From Fidelibacterota bacterium (GTDB lineage Bacteria > Fidelibacterota > Marinisomatia > Marinisomatales > UBA2128), in assembly GCA_046861645.1 (NCBI GenBank), contig JBHHUM010000058.1, positions 1 to 13,757 on the forward strand: a stretch of DNA of 13,757 nt, given 5' to 3'. The position numbers were made by a program, and so were the translations under genes. Under the pieces are notes generated by a model, which worked only from the letters and a program-made list of their open reading frames with translations, did not search any database and was not told the DNA's origin. Each line of letters begins with the position of its first letter. The stretch's first letter is position 1. Below are positions 681-13,757 of this stretch, in pieces.

Positions 681-1120
681 ATGGAGCAGCACGTGATAAG
701 ACACATCTCAAGCATCGCAGAAATCATAGATAATATGGAAAAAACCGTCCGTTTTTATCGCGACATCTTAAAGCTAAAAGTAGAATATGAGCCGGATTCT
801 TCTTACGCAATTGTAAACATCCCCGGAATACTACACTTCGGAATCTGGTCCCGGGCTGAAGCAGCAAAAATATCTATGGTGATGAAAACCAAGCCTACCG
901 AATTCCGCAGGGATTAACGATAGGTTTCGAAGTTGATGATATAAGAAATTCTAACAAGAAGATCCAATCATCAGGTTGGAAAATGGAACATGAAGTCCAT
1001 GAGGAACCTTGGGGACAGCTTACCACCATATTCTTTTCACCCGAGGGAACCCTGATTGAAATAACCAATACGCCTGGTGCCAGAGTAATTGTTGAAAATG
1101 TGAAGGCAATAAATGAGTAA
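681..1120 (+). pseudogene. VOC/glyoxalase/bleomycin-resistance family gene with a single frameshift (or sequencing indel)
   Basis: The N-half (IRHISSIAEIIDNMEKTVRFYRDILKL) is in the 681 frame. The C-half is in the -1 frame from about 872: IYGDENQAYRIPQGLTIGFEVDDI...HEEPWGQLTTIFFSPEGTLIEITN...E*, TAA 1118-1120. One extra A in the A5 run at 866-870 restores a 146-aa protein. Probable start is GTG 693 (GGAG at 683-686). Confidence 0.85.
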
Positions 1121-1508
1121 TTACTATTAAAAATTACACTTAATATTATATTTCAGATCGGGCGAAAAGCCGTACATTTTTTAGTACTTTACTAGACAAA
1201 GAGCCAACACTGGATTTACCTGGAATGACTGAATTCCCATTAGCAAAAGAAAACTAACTTTGATTGATGACTGAAAAAGGCCTTACTAATAGTTAGAGAC
1301 AAATTATTAATCCAGCTTTTGTAAATGGTTCACTTCGAGTTAAACTTTACTTACTGGTAGACAATGTCATTAAATTTCATAACTGTTCCTTTGCTTCAGG
1401 AGGTGAAGAGGTCAGTCCTTAATTAAAAAGTGATTGGGTTTATTACGTAGCCTATAGTCTTGACCTGATGGACATGCCTTAATCTTTATCGAGGAGATAT
1501 CTCAATAA
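1113..1508 (+). pseudogene. Decayed second VOC/glyoxalase-family gene
   Basis: Manual translation gives KLHLILY/(I)SDRAKSRTFFSTLLDKEPTLDLPGMTEFPLAKEN*L*LMTEKG...*...LRVKLYLLVDNV...SGGEEVSP*LKSDWVYYVAYSLD/(P)DGHALIFIEEISQ*. Stops at 1128, 1255, 1261, 1294 and 1420; frameshifts near 1150 and 1465. It retains VOC-type motifs (ILYxSD, PGMTEF, LYLxVD, DW...AYxxDPDGH). ATG 1113 overlaps the end of the upstream gene. Confidence 0.8.
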
Positions 1509-1530
1509 AAAGGCAACCTCACGGTTGCCT
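1505..1530 (-). terminator. Rho-independent terminator of the minus-strand operon
   Basis: Perfect 8-bp stem AGGCAACC/GGTTGCCT (1511-1518/1523-1530). On the minus strand it has a GTGA (GNRA) loop followed by TTTTATT, 26 nt past the stop of 1557..2006. Confidence 0.85.
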
Positions 1531-1556
1531 GAATGAGAACAGCCTCCAGAACAAAG

Positions 1557-2006
1557 CTATTTTTTCTTTTTCCCAAAGAGACCTTTCCGTTTCTTTGGTT
1601 CTTCATCTTTCTCCTGTTGATTACCTGATGATGGAGCTTGAGCCTTAGCAGCTTTTTCCTCGAGCCGTTTCTCCCATTCGCTCATCTCCTTTTCAGCTGA
1701 TGAAGGTTCTTCTACTCCTCCTTCATCAGGAATCTGGGGAGAGGGTTCTTCTCCGGCGGCTTCAGCTTCAATAAGCTTTTTTAACTTTTCCTCTCTTTCT
1801 TCAGAGCGGCTCTTCAGCATTTCCAACATCTCTGTCACTTCATCATGAAAGAGAGAAACGGTCTTTTCCATCCGACCAATTAATTCTTCCATTAAGGCTT
1901 CACCATACCCAGGACCCAAACCTTCTACCATTTCATCCATCTTTTCCAGGATAAATTGTTTATGGGCATCTATATTCTGATTTTCACGGGTTTCTTCGTC
2001 AGCCAT
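1557..2006 (-). CDS. Hypothetical protein (helical N-terminus, acidic linker, basic KKRKGLFGKKKK tail)
   Basis: 149-aa ORF with AGGAG Shine-Dalgarno 7 nt before the ATG, followed by a terminator. Confidence 0.8.
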   Translation of the reverse strand: MADEETRENQNIDAHKQFILEKMDEMVEGLGPGYGEALMEELIGRMEKTVSLFHDEVTEMLEMLKSRSEEREEKLKKLIEAEAAGEEPSPQIPDEGGVEEPSSAEKEMSEWEKRLEEKAAKAQAPSSGNQQEKDEEPKKRKGLFGKKKK

Positions 2007-2056
2007 AGTCTTTCTCCTGATTTACCTGATAAAGTTGAGTGCAATTAGATTCCGAA

Positions 2057-2878
2057 TCATTTACTGCTCCATAATTCCTCTCGAACAGCTTTATTTGTAT
2101 CATAGGAATTTTCCAGACCTTCTACCTCACCCGGAGCAAAGAAGATATGCTCTTTGGGTGAAGTCAACATAGCCACAAAATCGTAAACTGGCATACCAGC
2201 GACAAGTCCCAGGATTACACCGGAAAAGCGACGACTCCAAGTCTCATCAATTGTTGGTGAACTTAATATATTCCTAAACTCACCCATTCCTAAACCAAAG
2301 GTTCCCATGGCACTGAAGGTAATAACTTTAAGCCTGGTGTTACCTTCCTCTTCAACGGGTCGATAAGTTATTTCCTCTATATCAGTAATGGGAATTGTTT
2401 TTTCACCAATCACTTTTTTTAATCGAAGAGCTTTATCCTCAAACTTAACATAGCGACCAATAACAGGAATACCCTCATATCGTTTTACAGTACAGAAAGA
2501 ATTGGGGGGAATAGATCTCAGAATATCCTCTATACGTAAATAAGAAAGTTCATAATGATATTGTGCTCGCATCTGATCAGTAATTTCTGGATGATTCTGT
2601 GCTTTTTCCTTTAAAAGATAGAATTCATGGAAGGAATATTTCCGTCTGATTTTTTTCTGTCGGTTGCGCTCCCGGTATACTACACTGACCGAATAATGAT
2701 TAACGTCATGTTGGAAGAACTGAGCGCTTTCGAATCCCTCAATCTCTGGGAAAATACCCAGAATAGCATTCTCTTCAGCATCGAGTGTAGTTCCTACGTT
2801 TTCACTTAATGTAATTACTTCTGGTGGCTGAGCTGATATTAATATGAAACCCGCAACTATATTAAGAAAGATTTTCAG
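2057..2878 (-). CDS. Exported/membrane hypothetical protein of 273 aa, probable CTG start
   Basis: The frame of ORF 2057..2572 stays open 102 codons upstream to CTG at 2878, with no ATG/GTG/TTG before the upstream TGA at 2902-2900. GGAGG lies 6 nt before the CTG. The extended N-terminus MKIFLNIVAGFILISAQPPE looks like a signal peptide. Two Gly-rich hydrophobic segments lie near the C-terminus. Confidence 0.75.
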   Translation of the reverse strand: MKIFLNIVAGFILISAQPPEVITLSENVGTTLDAEENAILGIFPEIEGFESAQFFQHDVNHYSVSVVYRERNRQKKIRRKYSFHEFYLLKEKAQNHPEITDQMRAQYHYELSYLRIEDILRSIPPNSFCTVKRYEGIPVIGRYVKFEDKALRLKKVIGEKTIPITDIEEITYRPVEEEGNTRLKVITFSAMGTFGLGMGEFRNILSSPTIDETWSRRFSGVILGLVAGMPVYDFVAMLTSPKEHIFFAPGEVEGLENSYDTNKAVREELWSSK

Positions 2879-2879
2879 T

Positions 2880-3110
2880 TTACTCCTCCTCGAAAAGTTT
2901 CATTACTTCACCTGCTTCAGCATGGCGTCCTAGTTCTTTTTTAGAAAAAATTAATACGCCATCCTTCTTAACTTCAAAGACACCTCCTCCAGATGGTATC
3001 AGTGTAAGTTCACTAATATCAGAACCATACCTTTCCAATAGCTCATTCGCCAGACTGGCGGCTCTTGGAAGGTAGTTTCAAACGTTACAGTATTCTATTG
3101 ATACTTTCAT
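2880..3110 (-). CDS. SelW/SelT/SelH (Rdx family) selenoprotein, 76 aa, Sec at codon 11
   Basis: Translation MKVSIEYCNVUNYLPRAASLANELLERYGSDISELTLIPSGGGVFEVKKDGVLIFSKKELGRHAEAGEVMKLFEEE*. It has Rdx hallmarks IEYCxxU, GGxFEV and IFSKKxxGR. The in-frame TGA at 3080-3078 occupies the second redox position. Absent from the ORF track. Confidence 0.93.
3023..3077 (-). promoter_or_regulatory. Bacterial SECIS-like stem-loop immediately 3' of the Sec UGA
   Basis: mRNA UGA-AACUACCUUCCAAGAGC-CGCCA-GUC-UGGCG-AAUGA-GCUAUUGGAAAGGUAUGGUU. Lower stem UACC/GGUA, UUCCAA/UUGGAA, AGC/GCU; apical stem CGCCA/UGGCG with a GU-containing loop 22 nt after the UGA. Confidence 0.8.
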
Positions 3111-3120
3111 CTGCTGTCTA

Positions 3121-3252
3121 CTAAGTAACCAGAAACCGGTAAATCCATATGATCCCAAAAATAGCAAAAAGACCTGCCATCACCAGAAGAAAAACCGTAG
3201 CCCTTTCAAAGCCACGACGACCAGTATCGAATTTGAGGATATCTTTTGCCAT
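3121..3252 (-). CDS. Small single-pass membrane protein (43 aa)
   Basis: MAKDILKFDTGRRGFERATVFLLVMAGLFAIFGIIWIYRFLVT*. The ATG overlaps the upstream stop (TGATG at 3254-3250). It has one ~20-aa hydrophobic helix and ends 10 nt before the selenoprotein ATG. Confidence 0.75.
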   Translation of the reverse strand: MAKDILKFDTGRRGFERATVFLLVMAGLFAIFGIIWIYRFLVT

Positions 3253-5468
3253 CAGAAACTAAATTGGGTTTCTATATTCATGATGTTGATAACCTCGCCT
3301 TCTACATCCTCAGAAATCACACCATCCCCATCAAGATCAGCATGTAAACGACGGAAATCCCATACCAGACTTACTCCTGGACTAAGTTCATAACCCACCC
3401 GGTAACCCAGGATTGTATTCGGAGAAGGATTACCAAAATCGAAGGGGTTGCGGTCATTATTGCGTTGATAATAGGCAAACGCCTGACTTATCTTGGGAAT
3501 ATTATCGGTATTCAGTACCAGTGCTGCCATGAAACTACGCAAGGTATCACCGGCATCACTTCTCATATCAGTATACGATGCTGAACCACTTACCAAGTTA
3601 AATAAACTTAAACCGGCCGACCCATAAAATCCCTGGCGTTGTCCTTCACTTAAGTCTAAACGTTGTTCTTTAGTGGTAACCATAAGATTTCCTTCAATAT
3701 CAGATGAAACCGCAACACGATCTAAATCATAAGCCTGATCCCAAAATCCAGGGGCATAATAATCAGTATCCATACGATAGGCAAAACTGACATTGATGAA
3801 TTTCATAATAGTCGCATTAGCACCGAATGGTACGATGCCCATACCATTAAGATCAGCAAATCTTAGGATATTGGCTTCAGCGTAAAGGTGTATATTGAAC
3901 ATTTTTGAACTGAATACTGGATAACCAACATCAACTGCTAAACCTAATGCTCTCCTGGCATCCACATCATCAATATCGAAAGGATCTGGTTTAAGCTCAG
4001 CACCATCAGGATCATTATTCTCAATGTTTGGATCTTGACTATTATCTGTGTAGCCATCACCATCCTGATCAGGATCGATTTCGTCAGCAATACCGTCTCC
4101 ATCGGTATCAGTATCATAAGACTTAGATTCCGGAAAATCGTCTAACAGGTCTGGTACACCATCCTCATCAAAGTCCTTAAGTCCAGAATACTGGTTGACA
4201 TCCATAACCATGTTTGCACCTAAGGAAAGCTTTTTCCAGGGATTGAAAGTAAATCGTCCACCAACCAGACCACCACCCCGTCCAAAATCCTTAAAGTTGG
4301 CAATGAACAGTTCCGTACCGAATTTCCCGAACTTCATTCCACCATTAAGACCTATGCGACGAACCTGAGGAAATTCCATCATATTGGAATAACCGTTGAT
4401 AAGTCCTCCATAGCCCAAAGTAACATTTTCAAGGGAGCCATAACGGACAAAGAATTTGTCTTCCCGTTCACCCCATTTCACATAGAGTATCTTATCAAAG
4501 AAATCAGTAGGTTCATCCCACTCATCTTTACGTACTTTCCCCTGAGGATCGAGGTAAACTACAACATCTAGTCCTACACCCAGCTTTCCAAAAGATATCT
4601 CAGGTCGTAAAGCAAACTGGTTATAAATGACACCATCTATGGTGACTGAACCAAGTCCCATACCCAGGTTAAACGGACCTTCCTCCTCTGGGGCAGGAGC
4701 TTCTTCTTCCTCGACTTCTGGTACTTCTTCAGGAATCTCTTCAGGAATTTCTTCTTCAGGAATTTCTTCTTCAGGAACTTCTTCCTCGATCACTTCTTCT
4801 TCTATCTGTTCCTCTACTTCTTCCTCAGGGGCTTCTTCCTCAACCTCTTCCTGCGGTTCCTCTTCCTCGATCTGTTCTTCTCCTGCTTCAGGATCCTCTG
4901 GAACTTCTTCCGGGCTGGTGGGAGAGGTCACCAATTGTCCCGTTGCAGTGGAAAGAGTCATTTGTCCAGGTCCAAGAGTTTGGAACTGCCCACTGATAGT
5001 ATTGAATACTTCTACTTGCCCCTCCAGTCCATAGAACTTATCAAACCCCATCTGGTTAGAAACAGTCCAAAACTGGGTCCCTTTTACCGATGCAACCGAA
5101 ACAGGAGTTTCAATTCTGAAATCTTTTGTCTTTTCTTTCTTTACATCGGAAAGTACCTTTCCAAATTCTATATTAATAGTTCGAGTATTAGCGGTCTCCA
5201 TGAATTGAAATTGAGAGGATTCTCTTATTTTAAGAACACTTTTGTCATCAAGAAAAACAACTACACAAAACCCCTGTCCACCGACCTTTACCACATCGCC
5301 GTCAAAGACAGATTGTCCTGCCCTAAGAACCGAGAAGTCAGTATCAACTTGGTGCTTTATTTGCACCTGTCCTTTAGCTTTAGCGACCTTAGCCACTTCT
5401 TCTGCCGCAACAGCTTGGTTAATCATGAAAGGAAGGAAAATGATGGCTACAAATAATTTTAGTCTCAT
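3252..5468 (-). CDS. FecR-domain protein fused via a Glu/Pro-rich linker to a predicted outer-membrane beta-barrel with Ca-binding DxDxDG inserts
   Basis: Signal peptide (MRLKLFVAIIFLPFMINQAVA); FecR-like motifs (GDVVKVG, FLDDKSVLKI, FRIETPVSVASVKGTQF, EGQVEV); an acidic linker; alternating hydrophobic beta-strands; TSP3-like DFDEDGVPD/DTDGDGIAD/DQDGDG; C-terminal ETQFSF ending in Phe as in OM proteins. Confidence 0.8.
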   Translation of the reverse strand: MRLKLFVAIIFLPFMINQAVAAEEVAKVAKAKGQVQIKHQVDTDFSVLRAGQSVFDGDVVKVGGQGFCVVVFLDDKSVLKIRESSQFQFMETANTRTINIEFGKVLSDVKKEKTKDFRIETPVSVASVKGTQFWTVSNQMGFDKFYGLEGQVEVFNTISGQFQTLGPGQMTLSTATGQLVTSPTSPEEVPEDPEAGEEQIEEEEPQEEVEEEAPEEEVEEQIEEEVIEEEVPEEEIPEEEIPEEIPEEVPEVEEEEAPAPEEEGPFNLGMGLGSVTIDGVIYNQFALRPEISFGKLGVGLDVVVYLDPQGKVRKDEWDEPTDFFDKILYVKWGEREDKFFVRYGSLENVTLGYGGLINGYSNMMEFPQVRRIGLNGGMKFGKFGTELFIANFKDFGRGGGLVGGRFTFNPWKKLSLGANMVMDVNQYSGLKDFDEDGVPDLLDDFPESKSYDTDTDGDGIADEIDPDQDGDGYTDNSQDPNIENNDPDGAELKPDPFDIDDVDARRALGLAVDVGYPVFSSKMFNIHLYAEANILRFADLNGMGIVPFGANATIMKFINVSFAYRMDTDYYAPGFWDQAYDLDRVAVSSDIEGNLMVTTKEQRLDLSEGQRQGFYGSAGLSLFNLVSGSASYTDMRSDAGDTLRSFMAALVLNTDNIPKISQAFAYYQRNNDRNPFDFGNPSPNTILGYRVGYELSPGVSLVWDFRRLHADLDGDGVISEDVEGEVINIMNIETQFSF
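4680..4910 (-). repeat. Low-complexity coding repeats (EEIP/EEVP/EEEA units) in the acidic linker
   Basis: Imperfect 12-15-nt units such as ttcttcaggaat recur at about 4725-4780 and encode VPEEEIPEEEIPEEIPEEVP. Confidence 0.8.
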
Positions 5469-8504: not shown

Positions 8505-8848
8505 TAAATAGTGGTTTACAATATTATACATATTGTTAGCTATTCAACCACTAACTAAAAAAACCTAAAGCTAAGGTGTCTCCCATAGCACCTTCGGAAA
8601 CTTCCTTTACCCTTATCCTTCCTCTTTTAGCTGGTGAAATTACCTTCCTCCCGTTTAAGGTAATTCTCTTACCTTGGTGCTGAATGGCGGGAGCGATACG
8701 TATCGGAACAAATTAACCTGTAGGGTAAATGTGCTTTGGTTACTTGCGCTTTACCTCAAATATGAATTCATAATATCTCCCCGGGTGCCCTGGGATGACC
8801 AATATAGTGCCCGTCATGAACTAAGCTTTACAAATCATAAGTGTAGTG

Positions 8849-8936
8849 CGGAGAGAGGGGGATTCGAACCCCCGTTACGGGGTTACCGTAAACACGCTTT
8901 CCAAGCGTGCGCCTTCAGCCGCTCGGCCATCTCTCC
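8849..8936 (-). tRNA. tRNA-Ser (anticodon GGA), 3' CCA not encoded
   Basis: GGAGAGATGGCCGAGCGGCTGAAGGCG-CACGC-TTGGAAA-GCGTG-TTTACGGTAACCCCGTAAC-GGGGGTTCGAATCCCCC-TCTCTCCG. It shows a 7-bp acceptor stem, long variable arm, canonical T-loop and discriminator G, followed by CAC rather than CCA. Confidence 0.97.
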
Positions 8937-9000: not shown

Positions 9001-9495
9001 TCACGCTTCAGCAGTCTTTCCTTTCTCAGGTTCTGCTGACACTTCCTCTGCTGATTTATCCATCTGATTTTCTGTTTCATCTATAGCTGTGGAATCCTGG
9101 GAATCTTCCTTTGATTCGTCTGAAGAGGTAGTATCTGGATCTTCTGGTGTTTCTTCAATGGACTCTTCAACACTACTTTCTTCGGTGGACATAGCCGCTA
9201 CATTTGCATCTGCCGTAGCTTCCTCCTCGACAGATGGTTCTTCAGAAGCCTCTTCCATAACATTATCATGAGTTGGTTCTTCAACAACCAGTTCCATTGC
9301 TTGAGCTTCATCTTCTATCTGTTGGAGATAACTAGTAATAGTCATTCCCTCTGGAATCTTCAACATTGTTTCCTGGAAGCGGTATTGTCCTGTTTTTTCA
9401 GATTTGACCGATTTCACATATTTAACCATGGAATAATTCGGACCTTTCTGTTGTCCTTTTTTGGCTTTCTCAGCAAAAGATTGTTTCTTGGCCAT
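9001..9495 (-). CDS. DUF4295 (ribosomal protein bL38)-like N-terminal domain with a long acidic disordered tail
   Basis: MAKKQSFAEKAKK...MVKYVKSVKSEKTGQYRFQE resembles the DUF4295 pattern MAKK...KxIKxVKSxKTGAYxFxE. AGGAGG lies 4 nt before the ATG. The C-terminal ~100 aa are E/S/D-rich. Confidence 0.65.
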   Translation of the reverse strand: MAKKQSFAEKAKKGQQKGPNYSMVKYVKSVKSEKTGQYRFQETMLKIPEGMTITSYLQQIEDEAQAMELVVEEPTHDNVMEEASEEPSVEEEATADANVAAMSTEESSVEESIEETPEDPDTTSSDESKEDSQDSTAIDETENQMDKSAEEVSAEPEKGKTAEA

Positions 9496-9610: not shown

Positions 9611-12600
9611 TTAAGGAGTAGTCATGGGATTGAATTCAAACTCCATCAGATCACCATCTGACCAGGACTTTGGTTTGGTCTGAGATGTTACCACTCTCAT
9701 GCGCTCATTTCCCAAGAATTCAAAGAGCGCAAACCGTTTAACGCCATCATCGAATAAGATCGTCATTTCAAACGGCTTCGTAGAGAAGTTAACATCATAC
9801 CTACCCGGCTGCTCGTTGCTGATTTGAGTACCCATCATTACACCTTGTACAAAACCACTGTCCTCGGAAAAACGCCAGACTGCGGTTAATAAAGCCCCCT
9901 TGTACAACCACTCCCCAACCAAATCCCTGATAACATCCAGTCCCTGTACTGTGGCACTACGAGCACTGTTTCCAGCCAGATCCCTGCCCTCAATTGAAAC
10001 TGAATAAATAGTACCCACTTGAATTAATTCTGTACCAGGGATAACAACATTATCATGATCTCCAGACTGAAGTTCGTCTATCTGAATGGTAAGACGATGG
10101 GGAGAATTCGAATCAGTTACTCCAGCTTCTCGAGACCAAACAACCTCGGCTTGAGACAAATCTTCACTGAAACGAAAACTTATTCCTCTCTCCTTGATGA
10201 TAGAATGCGGCTCAGGGGCAGTAATACCAATTGTCGGAGGTGTAACATCATAAGTTATCTCATTGTTGACAACTTGTTCTCCTAAATTACCAGCCTTATC
10301 CACTCCCTTAAAAGTAAGGTTGTAGATATCTCCATTTGTGAGATTAGGTGCATTTAATAACTCAACAAATTCGTGATTTCCAGCAGATAACTCTCCAGAG
10401 GTTAGATCAACAATTATCTCAGAACCTGTAGAGCTCTCCCAAGTCAAGGATGCTGAAGACAGGTTTTCACTCAAGTAGTACGAGATGAGCGTGTTATTCA
10501 CAAAAGAGGTTGCCTCAGGTGAAATTAAAGTTAATTCTGGAGGATCGATGTCATAAGTGATGTCCTTTAGCTGCACAGTTTCACTTTCGTTACCTGCTAA
10601 ATCAACAGCCTTAAGTTTAAGTCGATAGATTGCTCCGCTCTTAAGGGGAACTTGATCCCATAGTTTTACTTCTTCGTGTCGACCAACTGTAAGAAACTCA
10701 CTGGATAGATCGATAATATAGGGAGATCTAGGATCTGCTTCCCCCCCAGTCTGTTCCCAGATAATTTCCATGAAATCTAAAGGTTCACTTGTGGTAAAGC
10801 TAATAATTGCATTATTAATGAAACTAAACGGCGTAGGAAAAATCTGAGTCAGGGACGGTTTCGACAGATCATAAGTCAAATTTGTAACTGCTTGGGATTG
10901 AGATTGATTTGAAGCTTCATCCTCGCCTGTTATTATCAGCGAATAGATGGAGCCATCTATAAGATTTGCCTGATTTTCAAGAGCAATATTACGATGCTCA
11001 CCTTCAGTTTTACCCTGCTCAGAAAGATTAATCTTATGGGGAGAATTCGGATCAAAGGTACCTCCTTCCCTTTCTAAAATAATACGACCCTTGGCCAATG
11101 GTTCTGACAAAAAGTAATTGATCACAAATGAATTAACAAATTCTCCTCCAGAGGGTCTGGAAACCGCAATAACAGGCGGGATGGTATCGTAACTGATATC
11201 ACTAATTACATCAGATAGGGCGCTATTTCGTCCCAAGTCAGTTCCATTCAATGAAAGTTGATATTTCGCTCCCTGAACTAAATCAGGAGATGGAACCGGG
11301 TTGAAATCTAAATGTTCACCAGCAGATAGTAGTCCATTGGTAAGAGTATATTGATAAGGTGCTTTAGGATCAGCTACTCCTCCAGCTTGTTCAATCATGA
11401 GTGTAGCCGAGGACAATTGTTCACTGAGTGAATAAGAAATTTTTAGTTCATTGATGGAACTTCCCAAAGAGGGAGATAGTATTGTCAACACTGGTGATGT
11501 ATTATCAAAAGTAATGTTCTCAGCGATAGTGCCTGAAGCTCTATTTCCAGCTAAATCCATACCCTCGAAAGAGAGGGAATAAGTTACCCCACTTTGTAGA
11601 TTGGGTAGCACAGCAGTAGAAATATTTTCATGTATGCCCTCCTGAAGGAGGTTGTCTTCCAGTGTAAAGGTAAAACTCGTCTGGAAACCAGCCGGGATAG
11701 CATCTGGTGTCCACACTATTGATCCAGAAATCAACTCTTCAGAAAGTGAAAAGGAAACAGTATCATTATTGATTATGGTCATGGGAGCAGGTCTACTGGC
11801 GACAATGGCTGGAGGTGTGATATCGTAGGATACATTTTCGATGATAACTGGTTCTGCCAGATTTCTGGCCCTATCCCGACCAGTGAACTTAATAGTATAT
11901 TCTTCACCATTAATAAGTTGAGGTGTAGCAGCTAACACGATTGCCAGATGGTCACCTGCTTTTCTTTCCTGTTGAGCAAGTAATGCTTCATGCGGTTCTG
12001 CAGGATCTTCGGTACCTCCTACCCTTACCCAGTTCACTTTGCCGATGAGTAAATCCTCAGAGAGATAATAGTCAAAAGTCCACTCATTGAGCCGGGTACC
12101 TGCACTGGGATAATGGATCACAATGACGGGGGGTTGACTATCAAATCCTATCACAGGAATCAACAGGTCTTCAGCTTTGTTGTTTGCAGCATCACTCCCA
12201 GTGACAGTTAAATCATAAATAGCACCTTCTACCAGGGATGGAGTATTCTGCAATATCACATTGTCGTGCTGGCCCCTTTTCAATTCTGATCTCTCGAGTA
12301 GTACAACATGTGGAGCCAGGGGATCATTGGTTCCTGACTTTTGTTCCCAGCGAAAGATCCCTTTTATCAGATCCTCGGATAAATTATAACTTACTCTGGG
12401 AGTACTTAATATGGTACCGGCTATGGGCACTGCCACCGAAATCTGTGGAGCGATATTATCAAACAATACCTGCTCTACAACGGCTTTTTCACCTTCGTTA
12501 CCAGCTTGATCAATTCCCATCAATTGGAGACGGTACTGAGCACCACTGATCAAAATACCTTCCCTTCCTATTCGAGAATGCTCACCCCAGGTTAATTCCT

Positions 12601-13757
12601 CACCTCTGAGGGTCTGCTTATGAGGAGATGTTGGGTCAGGTTCACCTGATATCCAAATCCAGCTGATTTGAGCTGATTTAAGCGATTCTGATAGTTTATA
12701 AGAGATAAGTGGAGAATTAGTGGCTGAAATGTTTGTCGGAGACGTGATATCTATCTGGGGCGGGGTTACATCATAGGATACACCAGAGATAATTGTTGGA
12801 GCGGCAATATTACCGGCGGCATCTTCGGCACGGAATTCCAAAGTATAAACGGAACCATCCTGTAGATCTGCTTCCTCGATAAAAGTCGTCTTCAGGTGAT
12901 CCCCTGAAATCAACTCTTCACCAATTAAGTTGATCAGATGAGGAGAATTATTATCTTCAACACCATCAGTTCGAGACCAGGAAATTGATCCTTTCAGTAA
13001 ATTCTCACTCAAGCGATAAGATATATAATTACTATTACGGAAAGTATTTGCCTGGGGATCACTTATTTCAATCCGGGGGGGTATGTTATCAAAAGTTAAT
13101 CCGGTAATAACTACCGTATCCGTTGGGTTACCCGCTAAATCGGAACCGAAGATGGTAAGATCATAGACTGTATCATTTATCAGTCGCGGTGCTCGGGCCA
13201 GGGTAACATCCTCGTGAGATCCAGCAGCCAACTCATCCTGAATTAAGGGTACCTCAATAATCTGAGGCTCACCTTCTTCTATTAATTGCTTCCAGATCAC
13301 TTTTCCACTCTGCAAAGGTTCCGATAAAGAGTAACTCATTATTGAGGAATTAATAGGATTATTTGCAACAGGCTTCTTTATTGACAGTTCTGGAGAAGTC
13401 ACATCATACTGTAGTGCTTCCACTCTTATTGTGTCTGCGGCATTTTTTGCTCGATCAAATCCGGAAAAGATGAGTCGATATGTAGTACCATCATGGAGTG
13501 TCGGCGCTCCTCGTAATTGTATATCCCGGTGTACCCCAGCAGAGAGTTCCAGATCACTCAATTCTACCTGATAAGGTGCAGATTCGTCAGCATTTCCTCC
13601 TGTATATTGCCATTCAAAAGTAGCACTCTGTAAGTCTTCAGATAGTCTGTACGAAACACGAGTATGATTAACTACTGCATCATTAGAAGGTGCAATAATA
13701 GATATCTCAGGAGGTGTACTATCGTAATAAAGATCAGTGATATTTACTGGGATGCCA
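9611..13757 (-). CDS. Very large protein with at least 12 tandem ~105-aa bacterial Ig-like repeats and a C-terminal beta domain (5'-partial)
   Basis: The frame stays open from 13561 to the window edge (GIPVNITDLYYDSTPPEISIIAP...VSYRLSEDLQSATFEW...), so the track's TTG is not the start. Repeat consensus: [YF]DxxPPxIxIxxP...N...ISYxLSExL..GxIxW...G..DPxxPH...L...EL..GxH...PxLxxGxxYxLxxxGxDxAGN. Confidence 0.85.
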   Translation of the reverse strand, partial: GIPVNITDLYYDSTPPEISIIAPSNDAVVNHTRVSYRLSEDLQSATFEWQYTGGNADESAPYQVELSDLELSAGVHRDIQLRGAPTLHDGTTYRLIFSGFDRAKNAADTIRVEALQYDVTSPELSIKKPVANNPINSSIMSYSLSEPLQSGKVIWKQLIEEGEPQIIEVPLIQDELAAGSHEDVTLARAPRLINDTVYDLTIFGSDLAGNPTDTVVITGLTFDNIPPRIEISDPQANTFRNSNYISYRLSENLLKGSISWSRTDGVEDNNSPHLINLIGEELISGDHLKTTFIEEADLQDGSVYTLEFRAEDAAGNIAAPTIISGVSYDVTPPQIDITSPTNISATNSPLISYKLSESLKSAQISWIWISGEPDPTSPHKQTLRGEELTWGEHSRIGREGILISGAQYRLQLMGIDQAGNEGEKAVVEQVLFDNIAPQISVAVPIAGTILSTPRVSYNLSEDLIKGIFRWEQKSGTNDPLAPHVVLLERSELKRGQHDNVILQNTPSLVEGAIYDLTVTGSDAANNKAEDLLIPVIGFDSQPPVIVIHYPSAGTRLNEWTFDYYLSEDLLIGKVNWVRVGGTEDPAEPHEALLAQQERKAGDHLAIVLAATPQLINGEEYTIKFTGRDRARNLAEPVIIENVSYDITPPAIVASRPAPMTIINNDTVSFSLSEELISGSIVWTPDAIPAGFQTSFTFTLEDNLLQEGIHENISTAVLPNLQSGVTYSLSFEGMDLAGNRASGTIAENITFDNTSPVLTILSPSLGSSINELKISYSLSEQLSSATLMIEQAGGVADPKAPYQYTLTNGLLSAGEHLDFNPVPSPDLVQGAKYQLSLNGTDLGRNSALSDVISDISYDTIPPVIAVSRPSGGEFVNSFVINYFLSEPLAKGRIILEREGGTFDPNSPHKINLSEQGKTEGEHRNIALENQANLIDGSIYSLIITGEDEASNQSQSQAVTNLTYDLSKPSLTQIFPTPFSFINNAIISFTTSEPLDFMEIIWEQTGGEADPRSPYIIDLSSEFLTVGRHEEVKLWDQVPLKSGAIYRLKLKAVDLAGNESETVQLKDITYDIDPPELTLISPEATSFVNNTLISYYLSENLSSASLTWESSTGSEIIVDLTSGELSAGNHEFVELLNAPNLTNGDIYNLTFKGVDKAGNLGEQVVNNEITYDVTPPTIGITAPEPHSIIKERGISFRFSEDLSQAEVVWSREAGVTDSNSPHRLTIQIDELQSGDHDNVVIPGTELIQVGTIYSVSIEGRDLAGNSARSATVQGLDVIRDLVGEWLYKGALLTAVWRFSEDSGFVQGVMMGTQISNEQPGRYDVNFSTKPFEMTILFDDGVKRFALFEFLGNERMRVVTSQTKPKSWSDGDLMEFEFNPMTTP

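Follow-up and report, generated by a model that had tools for sequence, protein, structure and literature searches.

A phylum-wide envelope operon of Fidelibacterota with a predicted FecR-type head on an outer-membrane barrel and, in one class, an accessory selenoprotein W

Do five closely packed genes of a Fidelibacterota genome work together across the cell envelope, or do they lie side by side without a common function? The question was raised by a stretch of 13,757 nucleotides (nt) from contig JBHHUM010000058.1 of assembly GCA_046861645.1, hereafter called the window. In this window, an earlier note had described a gene for a FecR-barrel fusion protein (g1), a gene for a micropeptide (g2), a selenoprotein gene of the Rdx type (g3, SelW), a gene for an exported protein with an apparent CTG start (g4), and a gene for an acidic protein (g5), which were read as one operon and possibly one trans-envelope module. 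Fidelibacterota (SAR406) are commonly portrayed as abundant in dark ocean waters, and only one species has been cultured (PMC11652737). The order of the genes and their sequences indicated that the five-gene locus is a genuine operon of this Fidelibacterota (SAR406/Marinimicrobia) genome. For all five products, protein-level conservation extended over dozens of genomes.

The gene order was compared at three depths. g1 was matched in 38 of 41 related genomes, which covered 16 families of the order. In the 20 order-level loci, g4 came after g1 in every case (20/20), SelW lay between them in 19/20, and g5 was present in 19/20, with the contig of the remaining locus ending inside g4. The peptide g2, searched with the sequence of the window, was detected in 10/20 of these loci, and one further locus was masked there; in L032, the stretch between g1 and SelW where g2 is expected reads N, and g2 was not scorable. 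A g4 profile was matched in 95 of 201 genomes sampled over the phylum. In the 20 distant loci found via g4, g1 was directly upstream in 20/20 and g5 was downstream in 15/20, while SelW occurred in 5/5 loci of a second family of the same class (f21) and in 0/15 loci of other classes. SelW was not found in four other-class genomes, three of which have selA. Moreover, 78 species-representative loci were reached via g1, from genomes that partly overlap the order-level set, and the 62 loci with at least 1700 nt downstream were counted. Their layouts were g1-g2-g3-g4-g5 (32 loci), g1-g3-g4-g5 (18), g1-g4-g5 (11) and none of these (1), with g4 and g5 following g1 in 61/62; g2 without g3 was not seen among the 62. 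A pattern search with the g1 alignment, restricted to one genome per species, gave 554 g1 relatives, and the 78 of them that were listed were named Marinimicrobia, Neomarinimicrobiota or Fidelibacterota, or were untyped ("uncultured bacterium," "FCB group bacterium" or "bacterium").

Hence, these layout counts, the separable position of SelW and the SelW-free other classes indicated that the core of the operon is g1-g4-g5 and is phylum-wide, whereas g2 and SelW form an accessory pair confined to the class of the window. By the same comparison, the pair was inserted between g1 and g4 in that one class. The earlier note had taken a gene order limited to very close relatives as the outcome that would speak against its proposal. 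The order was kept across the 16 families and the second family of the class, and the core was kept in other classes, that is, far past close relatives, so the proposal did not fail on this ground. The five-gene module of that note was thus upheld as an operon of conserved order, but not as a fixed set, given that g2 and SelW are accessory and SelW is also encoded elsewhere.

The features of the locus are given in Table 1. Checks of the open reading frames (ORFs), translations and hairpins recovered the five genes, their spacings and the terminator on the minus strand, in the places where they had been reported. The ATG of g2 and the TGA of g1 have one base in common (TGATG). A gap of 10 nt separates g2 from g3, 1 nt separates the stop of g3 from the CTG of g4, and 50 nt separate g4 from g5. 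A hairpin of eight pairs (five G-C) with a loop of four begins the terminator-like element 27 nt past the g5 stop and is followed directly by TTTTATT; a G+C-rich hairpin and a U run just past the last stop, as expected of an intrinsic terminator, were therefore present 3′ of g5. A second terminator-like hairpin at 3194-3218 (minus strand), inside the coding sequence of g2, has 11 pairs with only four G-C and is probably due to chance. It had also been claimed that three of the five genes are missed or truncated by standard ORF calling. This held for g4, which is public only in a 171-residue form, but not for the 43-residue g2, which is on record as called. The mechanical 52-residue remnant of SelW from this contig was not on record in the public collection, and the public copies of the core proteins are named "hypothetical protein."

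Table 1. Positions of the features of the operon in the window.
Feature	Position	Strand	Description or basis
g1	3252..5468	minus	ORF, 738 aa; outer-membrane FecR-barrel protein (predicted), Pfam FecR in 36/36 orthologs
FecR-type domain of g1, residues 24-183	4920..5399	minus	Foldseek and Pfam FecR
Acidic linker of g1, residues 184-266	4671..4919	minus	Composition and pLDDT
Beta-barrel of g1, residues 267-738	3255..4670	minus	Predicted strands, Foldseek
Asp-rich insert of g1 barrel, ~residues 424-506	3951-4199	minus	Thrombospondin-type-3-like
g2	3121..3252	minus	43-aa peptide, one transmembrane helix; translation and hydropathy
g3 (SelW/Rdx)	2880..3110	minus	76 aa, Sec at codon 11 (TGA 3078-3080), motif CNVU
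SECIS-like stem-loop	3022..3079	minus	Directly after UGA; apical hairpin 3048-3060
Shine-Dalgarno-like GAGGAGGAG	2883..2891	minus	Within SelW 3′ end; GGAGG core six bases ahead of g4 CTG
g4	2057..2878	minus	273 aa, apparently CTG-initiated; signal peptide ~residues 1-16
g5	1557..2006	minus	149 aa, acidic, pI (isoelectric point) 4.75, without signal peptide, without Cys
Intrinsic-terminator-like hairpin AGGCAACC-GTGA-GGTTGCCT, then TTTTATT	1501..1530 (hairpin 1511-1530)	minus	

The reading of g3 as a selenoprotein was evaluated from its coding sequence, its orthologs and the genome around it. Translation through the TGA as selenocysteine (Sec) gave MKVSIEYCNVU..., with CNVU at residues 8-11. 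The product scored 77.5 bits against Pfam Rdx (cut-off 22.6), 100.9 bits against NCBIfam SelTWH_Campy (cut-off 88) and 59 bits against TIGR02174 (cut-off 34.2). The in-frame TGA was kept in the window and 19/19 order-level orthologs, and in 50/50 species-representative loci, all 50 of which had C-x-x-stop at the identical position. In the second family of the class, a stop likewise stood at the position of codon 11 in the translations of 5/5 loci. A stem-loop resembling a selenocysteine insertion sequence (SECIS) was predicted directly after the UGA in the window, with an energy of −21.5 kcal/mol and a z of −2.6; 1 of 200 shuffled sequences was equally good. Over 20 sequences, 98% of the cells of the apical helix were paired and only 62% of those of the lower helix, in counts that favour the window because the structure was derived from its sequence. 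The apical pair 51:63 covaried (CG 8, GC 4, GU 3, UA 2, AU 1, UG 1), the G of the loop was invariant, and no Rfam family reached threshold. The same genome encodes selA and selB side by side and selD, itself with one TGA, all above cut-off, and a tRNA-SeC was found by ARAGORN on contig C148. The selenoprotein claim of the earlier note was therefore borne out by a UGA kept in all orthologs examined, a covarying hairpin, and selA, selB, selD and tRNA-Sec in the genome, and these sequence data indicated that g3 is a genuine selenoprotein gene, a SelW of the known Rdx/SelW-SelT-SelH family.

A study on Campylobacter jejuni describes a SelW whose UGA is decoded by tRNA-Sec, which carries CxxU near the N-terminus, is ~76-80 residues long and is often missed by annotation (PMC11955535). 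The g3 protein is similar in its size and N-terminal CxxU, and it scored above the threshold of the NCBIfam equivalog that was derived from the Campylobacter protein. It differs in that it is embedded in an envelope operon after a conserved membrane peptide and in that the gene after it starts within its 3′ end. In a relative (G023), a peroxiredoxin-like gene that needs TGA as Sec (FTPGUTKQ) is followed 10 bases on by SelW, forming tandem selenoprotein genes (L178 3257-3992, plus strand).

The start of g4 overlaps the end of SelW in most loci. g4 was in the +1 frame relative to SelW in 72/73 loci, and a canonical start (ATG, GTG or TTG) was present in 69/72, in the interval from the in-frame stop upstream to 13 nt beyond the SelW stop. 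The canonical start nearest to the SelW stop mostly preceded the end of that stop by 11 to 35 bases; the commonest was a TTG at −14 (26 loci), which comes from the SelW codons for the C-terminal Ile/Leu-Glu. The three loci without a canonical start were the window, a congener (L023) and L036. In the window, the g4 frame is open from 2899, and no ATG, GTG or TTG occurs in it ahead of the signal-peptide-like segment KIFLNIVAGFILISA, with the CTG at 2876-2878. The SelW codons read TTC GAG in the window and L023 and TTT GAA in another congener (L022), a change that is synonymous in SelW and turns TTG into TCG in the g4 frame. In all three members of the genus, CTG-AAR was kept one base past the SelW stop, and GGAGG, GAGGGAG or AAGGAG stood six bases ahead of the CTG. 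By this sequence logic, g4 of the genus is best read as starting at the CTG, its only candidate start. In a locus that lacks SelW (L038), g4 begins at an ATG of its own, which overlaps the stop of g1; therefore, g4 is a signal-peptide protein in its own right and no frameshifted extension of SelW. The g2 start overlapped the g1 stop by 1 nt in 34/47 loci, and the coordinates of g4 and g5 overlapped in several other-class loci. Translation is thus chained along the operon: g2 starts on the stop of g1, and g4 normally starts within the 3′ end of SelW. Overlapping or near-abutting frames are the rule.

In g1, a signal-peptide-like segment of 21 residues was followed by a FecR-type fold from residue 24, and Pfam FecR was matched at residues 70-141 (E 4.8e-11), as in all the orthologs scanned. 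The AlphaFold2 model, built from 24 sequences, had a mean predicted local distance difference test score (pLDDT) of 69.6 and contained a beta-sandwich, a linker with 44 Glu and 13 Pro among its 83 residues, and ~20 strands that ran up to the C-terminal ...ETQFSF and formed a barrel of ~470 residues. The linker was predicted to be disordered at residues 196-263 (pLDDT below 50). In Foldseek comparisons, the head superposed on 4m0n, the periplasmic domain of BDI_1681 (E 3.2e-6, root mean square deviation (rmsd) 2.3, 131 columns), and on the PupR CCSSD 6ovk (E 1.5e-5, rmsd 1.8, 129 columns). The barrel matched MOMP, Wzi, AlgE, LamB and LptD with E values of 6e-6 to 1e-4 and low TM-scores. A PDB profile search with g1 gave an OmpA-family entry, 5wtl, at residues 429-490 (E 0.0016), in a thrombospondin-type-3-like stretch; by sequence, the Asp-rich insert of the barrel resembles thrombospondin-type-3 calcium-binding repeats. 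Hence, the models suggested that the head of g1, hung from an outer-membrane barrel, folds like the periplasmic domain through which anti-sigma factors act in cell-surface signalling. To our knowledge, such a fusion has had no prior study. Relatives also encode head-only proteins (~230-250 residues). FecR proteins encoded next to CHASE2 cyclases share the head domain of g1 and lack its barrel. The genome of the window itself has a stand-alone FecR protein of 227 residues, in a row with two unknown proteins (396 and 914 residues) and a CHASE2 adenylate/guanylate cyclase, two genes away from the FecR gene (contig C58, L095 2-7299, minus strand).

In the g4 model (pLDDT 83.3), a signal helix led into a small alpha/beta domain and then a helical segment; residues 112-175 formed an Sm/SH3-like barrel, and two long Gly-rich helices (181-239) made up a hairpin ahead of the C-terminal tail. 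VIA-align gave Z values of 8-9.8 for the Sm-like part, a common fold, and otherwise returned helical hairpins only; Foldseek with the same model gave no match at E 0.001 or better. A g4 profile search of 1.84 billion representatives yielded 1411 matches at E ≤0.001, many of them via the N-terminal domain alone in proteins of 300-585 residues. When 32 of these were scanned, three had any match at E ≤0.001, and none pointed to a function. Of these three, P0070 and P0080, distant relatives of the g4 N-domain, had weak Gly-zipper matches below the cut-offs, and P0154 had LSM/RimP-type Sm-like domains. No Pfam family, Gly-zipper included, matched g4 at E 0.01, and no cysteine was present at the predicted cleavage site. 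In a protein-cluster atlas, Gly-zipper clusters were the nearest named neighbours of g4 (0.86-0.87), which is a lead only. Gly-zipper outer-membrane lipoproteins of the SlyB/Pcp type share the Gly-rich helical hairpin with g4, whereas the g4 protein of the window lacks the lipobox cysteine and has the reversed domain order. An apparent g4-g5 fusion in L041 was rejected as an artefact with a stop codon inside the tblastn match. Longer fused forms of g4 or g5 were not found, which is weak evidence. A complex prediction for g1 (22-738) with g4 (20-273), run with separate alignments and without controls, scored 0.00, and nothing was inferred from it.

The g5 protein has two conserved helical blocks, GxGYG...EEL..RLEKTV..FHEEV and MSEWEKRLE, and a polybasic tail KKRKGLFGKKKK (KKKGLFGRKKK), which we take to resemble short membrane-targeting sequences. 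Pfam gave noise below threshold only, and a PDB profile match to Crl (E 0.0017) was treated as chance; the PDB profile search with g4 gave no match, and neither protein has a relative of solved structure. The nearest atlas clusters of both g4 and g5 were mostly from Fidelibacterota. The accessory peptide g2 has a conserved N-terminal motif (KxxLKFDxGxxGFEKA in the window) and a predicted transmembrane helix at residues 19-37. The 47 loci with g2 gave 43 distinct peptides with the consensus KTVYRYDxGxxGFxKAAxxLxxLAxxLAxFGxxWI, and the size of this membrane peptide in the class of the window was 41-58 residues. No Pfam family was found for g2.

The surroundings of the core differed between classes. 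In 8 of 15 other-class loci, g1 was immediately preceded, in its own orientation, by three genes: one for an exported protein (X, 380-428 residues), one for a stand-alone CheY-like receiver, and one for a cytoplasmic protein with a periplasmic-binding-protein-like domain and PAS. These genes were identified with Pfam in L084, L085 and L093, where their spacings ranged from a 1-nt overlap to 100 bases, and were recognised by tblastn in the remaining loci. An X homologue of 441 residues was also found in the genome of the window (contig C143, L179 1065-4810, minus strand), followed by a Redoxin/TlpA-like protein and a DUF6029 protein of 637 residues, so that X is paired for a second time with a thioredoxin-fold protein. 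The DUF6029 protein was considered as a relative of the g1 barrel, and no relation was detectable (hhalign probability 0.4%).

Based on the domains and synteny, the most likely function of the operon, tentatively proposed, is that of an envelope-spanning signalling or tethering module. The FecR-type head would act as a periplasmic protein-binding head, as in cell-surface signalling, tethered to the outer instead of the inner membrane. On its long acidic tether, it would reach over the periplasm to a membrane-anchored g4, which in turn would connect to a membrane-peripheral, cytoplasmic g5. Such a module may relay a signal or may mechanically couple the two membranes, and SelW with g2 would not be essential, serving as a lineage-specific redox accessory close to the membrane. 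Signalling was favoured because receiver and PAS genes join the core operon in other classes; a structural tether was kept in play because of the barrel-only paralogues and the housekeeping neighbours. FecR/PupR-type signalling relies on three parts: a TonB-dependent transducer, an extracytoplasmic function (ECF) sigma factor and an anti-sigma factor whose C-terminal signalling domain is periplasmic. The present operon is like these systems in the Pfam FecR match of the g1 head, in its superposition on the BDI_1681 and PupR periplasmic domains, and in the joint encoding of outer-membrane and cytoplasmic components. It is unlike them in that the FecR domain is fused to an outer-membrane barrel and not to an inner-membrane anti-sigma protein. 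Furthermore, g1 lacks the anti-sigma architecture, in which a cytoplasmic anti-sigma domain at the N-terminus and one transmembrane helix come ahead of FecR, and no Pfam family of an ECF sigma factor or TonB-dependent transducer was found among the 12 ORFs of the window or 44 neighbours in eight related loci.

Several observations weigh against the proposed module. Neither ECF sigma factors nor anti-sigma N-domains, TonB-dependent transducers or histidine kinases were detected by Pfam in the window, and in the order of the window itself the X, CheY and PAS genes were not next to the operon. g4 and g5 fell in no known family in the Pfam, NCBIfam, PDB profile and atlas searches, X likewise belongs to no known family, and the CTG of g4 is a putative start read from the sequence. 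In the g4 hairpin, whose tip varies between classes, only the second helix (220-238) passed the Kyte-Doolittle transmembrane threshold, and the tail past the hairpin is strongly basic in other classes; the modelled topology is therefore ambiguous, and g4 may cross the membrane twice as a hairpin, or once with its tail in the cytoplasm. The core can do without SelW, as it does in other classes, and in G023 the operon lacks SelW, which is encoded with its TGA elsewhere, directly after the Sec-peroxiredoxin-like gene. No conserved cysteine was present in g1, g4 or g5, so SelW has no obvious substrate in the module.

A purely structural role was judged rather unlikely. An OmpM/SlpA-like g1 would hold the outer membrane to an inner partner, either g4 or the wall, and would set the envelope architecture without any signal. 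OmpM/SlpA-type tethers have an N-terminal periplasmic SLH head, a long coiled-coil spacer and a C-terminal porin-like barrel, and g1 has the corresponding order of head, 83-residue Glu/Pro spacer and large barrel. Barrel-only paralogues (~520-560 residues), which are encoded in most relatives, would be expected of a general porin that gained a head, and the core is often located beside housekeeping genes, with dnaX-ybaB-recR downstream in 5 of the 8 loci examined. One barrel-only paralogue was found within the housekeeping order recA-recX-barrel-alaS. However, the head is of the FecR type and not SLH, the spacer is acidic and predicted to be disordered and not a coiled coil, and no SLH, OmpA_C or other wall-binding domain was found by Pfam in g1 of the window or the 36 orthologs. 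The CheY and PAS genes of the other-class operons also point to signalling. Surface display of the FecR head as an adhesin or receptor, exported autotransporter-like by the barrel, is less likely and appears improbable, although the layout of a signal peptide, a passenger-sized domain, a linker and a C-terminal barrel fits it. FecR-domain proteins of Leptospira are reported as surface adhesins or receptors, and the g1 head weakly matched the NCBIfam models of Lsa33, Lsa19 and LipL45 (E 7e-6 to 2e-4), far below the cut-offs; these proteins share the head domain and lack the barrel. Pfam found no autotransporter barrel family in g1 of the window or the 36 orthologs, the ~470 residues of the barrel form many more than 12 strands, and the closest structures to the head were periplasmic signalling domains.

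A common function could also be absent. In that case, g1 would be an outer-membrane protein of the usual kind, its transcript would include the small genes only because the genome is compact, and SelW would be a cytoplasmic protein with a general redox role. SelW beside the Sec-peroxiredoxin in G023, the SelW-free cores of other classes and the presence of g2 in only 32 of the 62 loci agree with this possibility, which was assigned a similarly low probability to that of the structural role. However, g1 and g4 remained together in 20/20 loci found via g4, and g4 and g5 followed g1 in nearly all loci found via g1, across classes with differing surroundings; the overlapping frames were kept over the depth of a class, and g2 never occurred without g3. 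Mere adjacency may account for SelW and g2, but scarcely for the core. As a more specific form of the signalling module, g2 might hold SelW to the inner membrane on its cytoplasmic side, near g4 and g5, where SelW would act as the redox switch of a FecR-barrel relay across the envelope. This idea is doubtful and was given little weight; if true, it would provide the first functional context for a bacterial SelW and would turn the logic of cell-surface signalling inside out, the FecR head being fixed to the outer membrane.

Other features of the window were located outside the operon. At 681-1120 (plus strand), the frames 681..917 and ~860..1117 read as one frameshift-split protein of the glyoxalase/VOC type, either a pseudogene or an assembly error; this label is a reading of the sequence and not a profile match. 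A tRNA-Ser(GGA) occupies 8848-8936 (minus strand). The adjacent ORF at 9001-9495 (minus strand, 164 residues) matched DUF4295, a family of ~47 positions, at residues 16-45 only, and the real gene may therefore be much shorter. A very large protein of at least 1381 residues with bacterial Ig-like domains (Big_3_3, Big_13) is encoded at 9611-13756 (minus strand) and runs off the window.

The literature searches returned no description of the FecR-barrel fusion or of the operon, and the module as a whole matches no described system. The operon is one of the most conserved envelope gene clusters of Fidelibacterota, and its core proteins are nameless. Annotation loses genes in this locus in three ways, namely, UGA recoding, starts inside the preceding gene and an apparent CTG start. 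We know of no function for bacterial SelW; if SelW is functionally tied to the module, the operon would offer a lead on its role.

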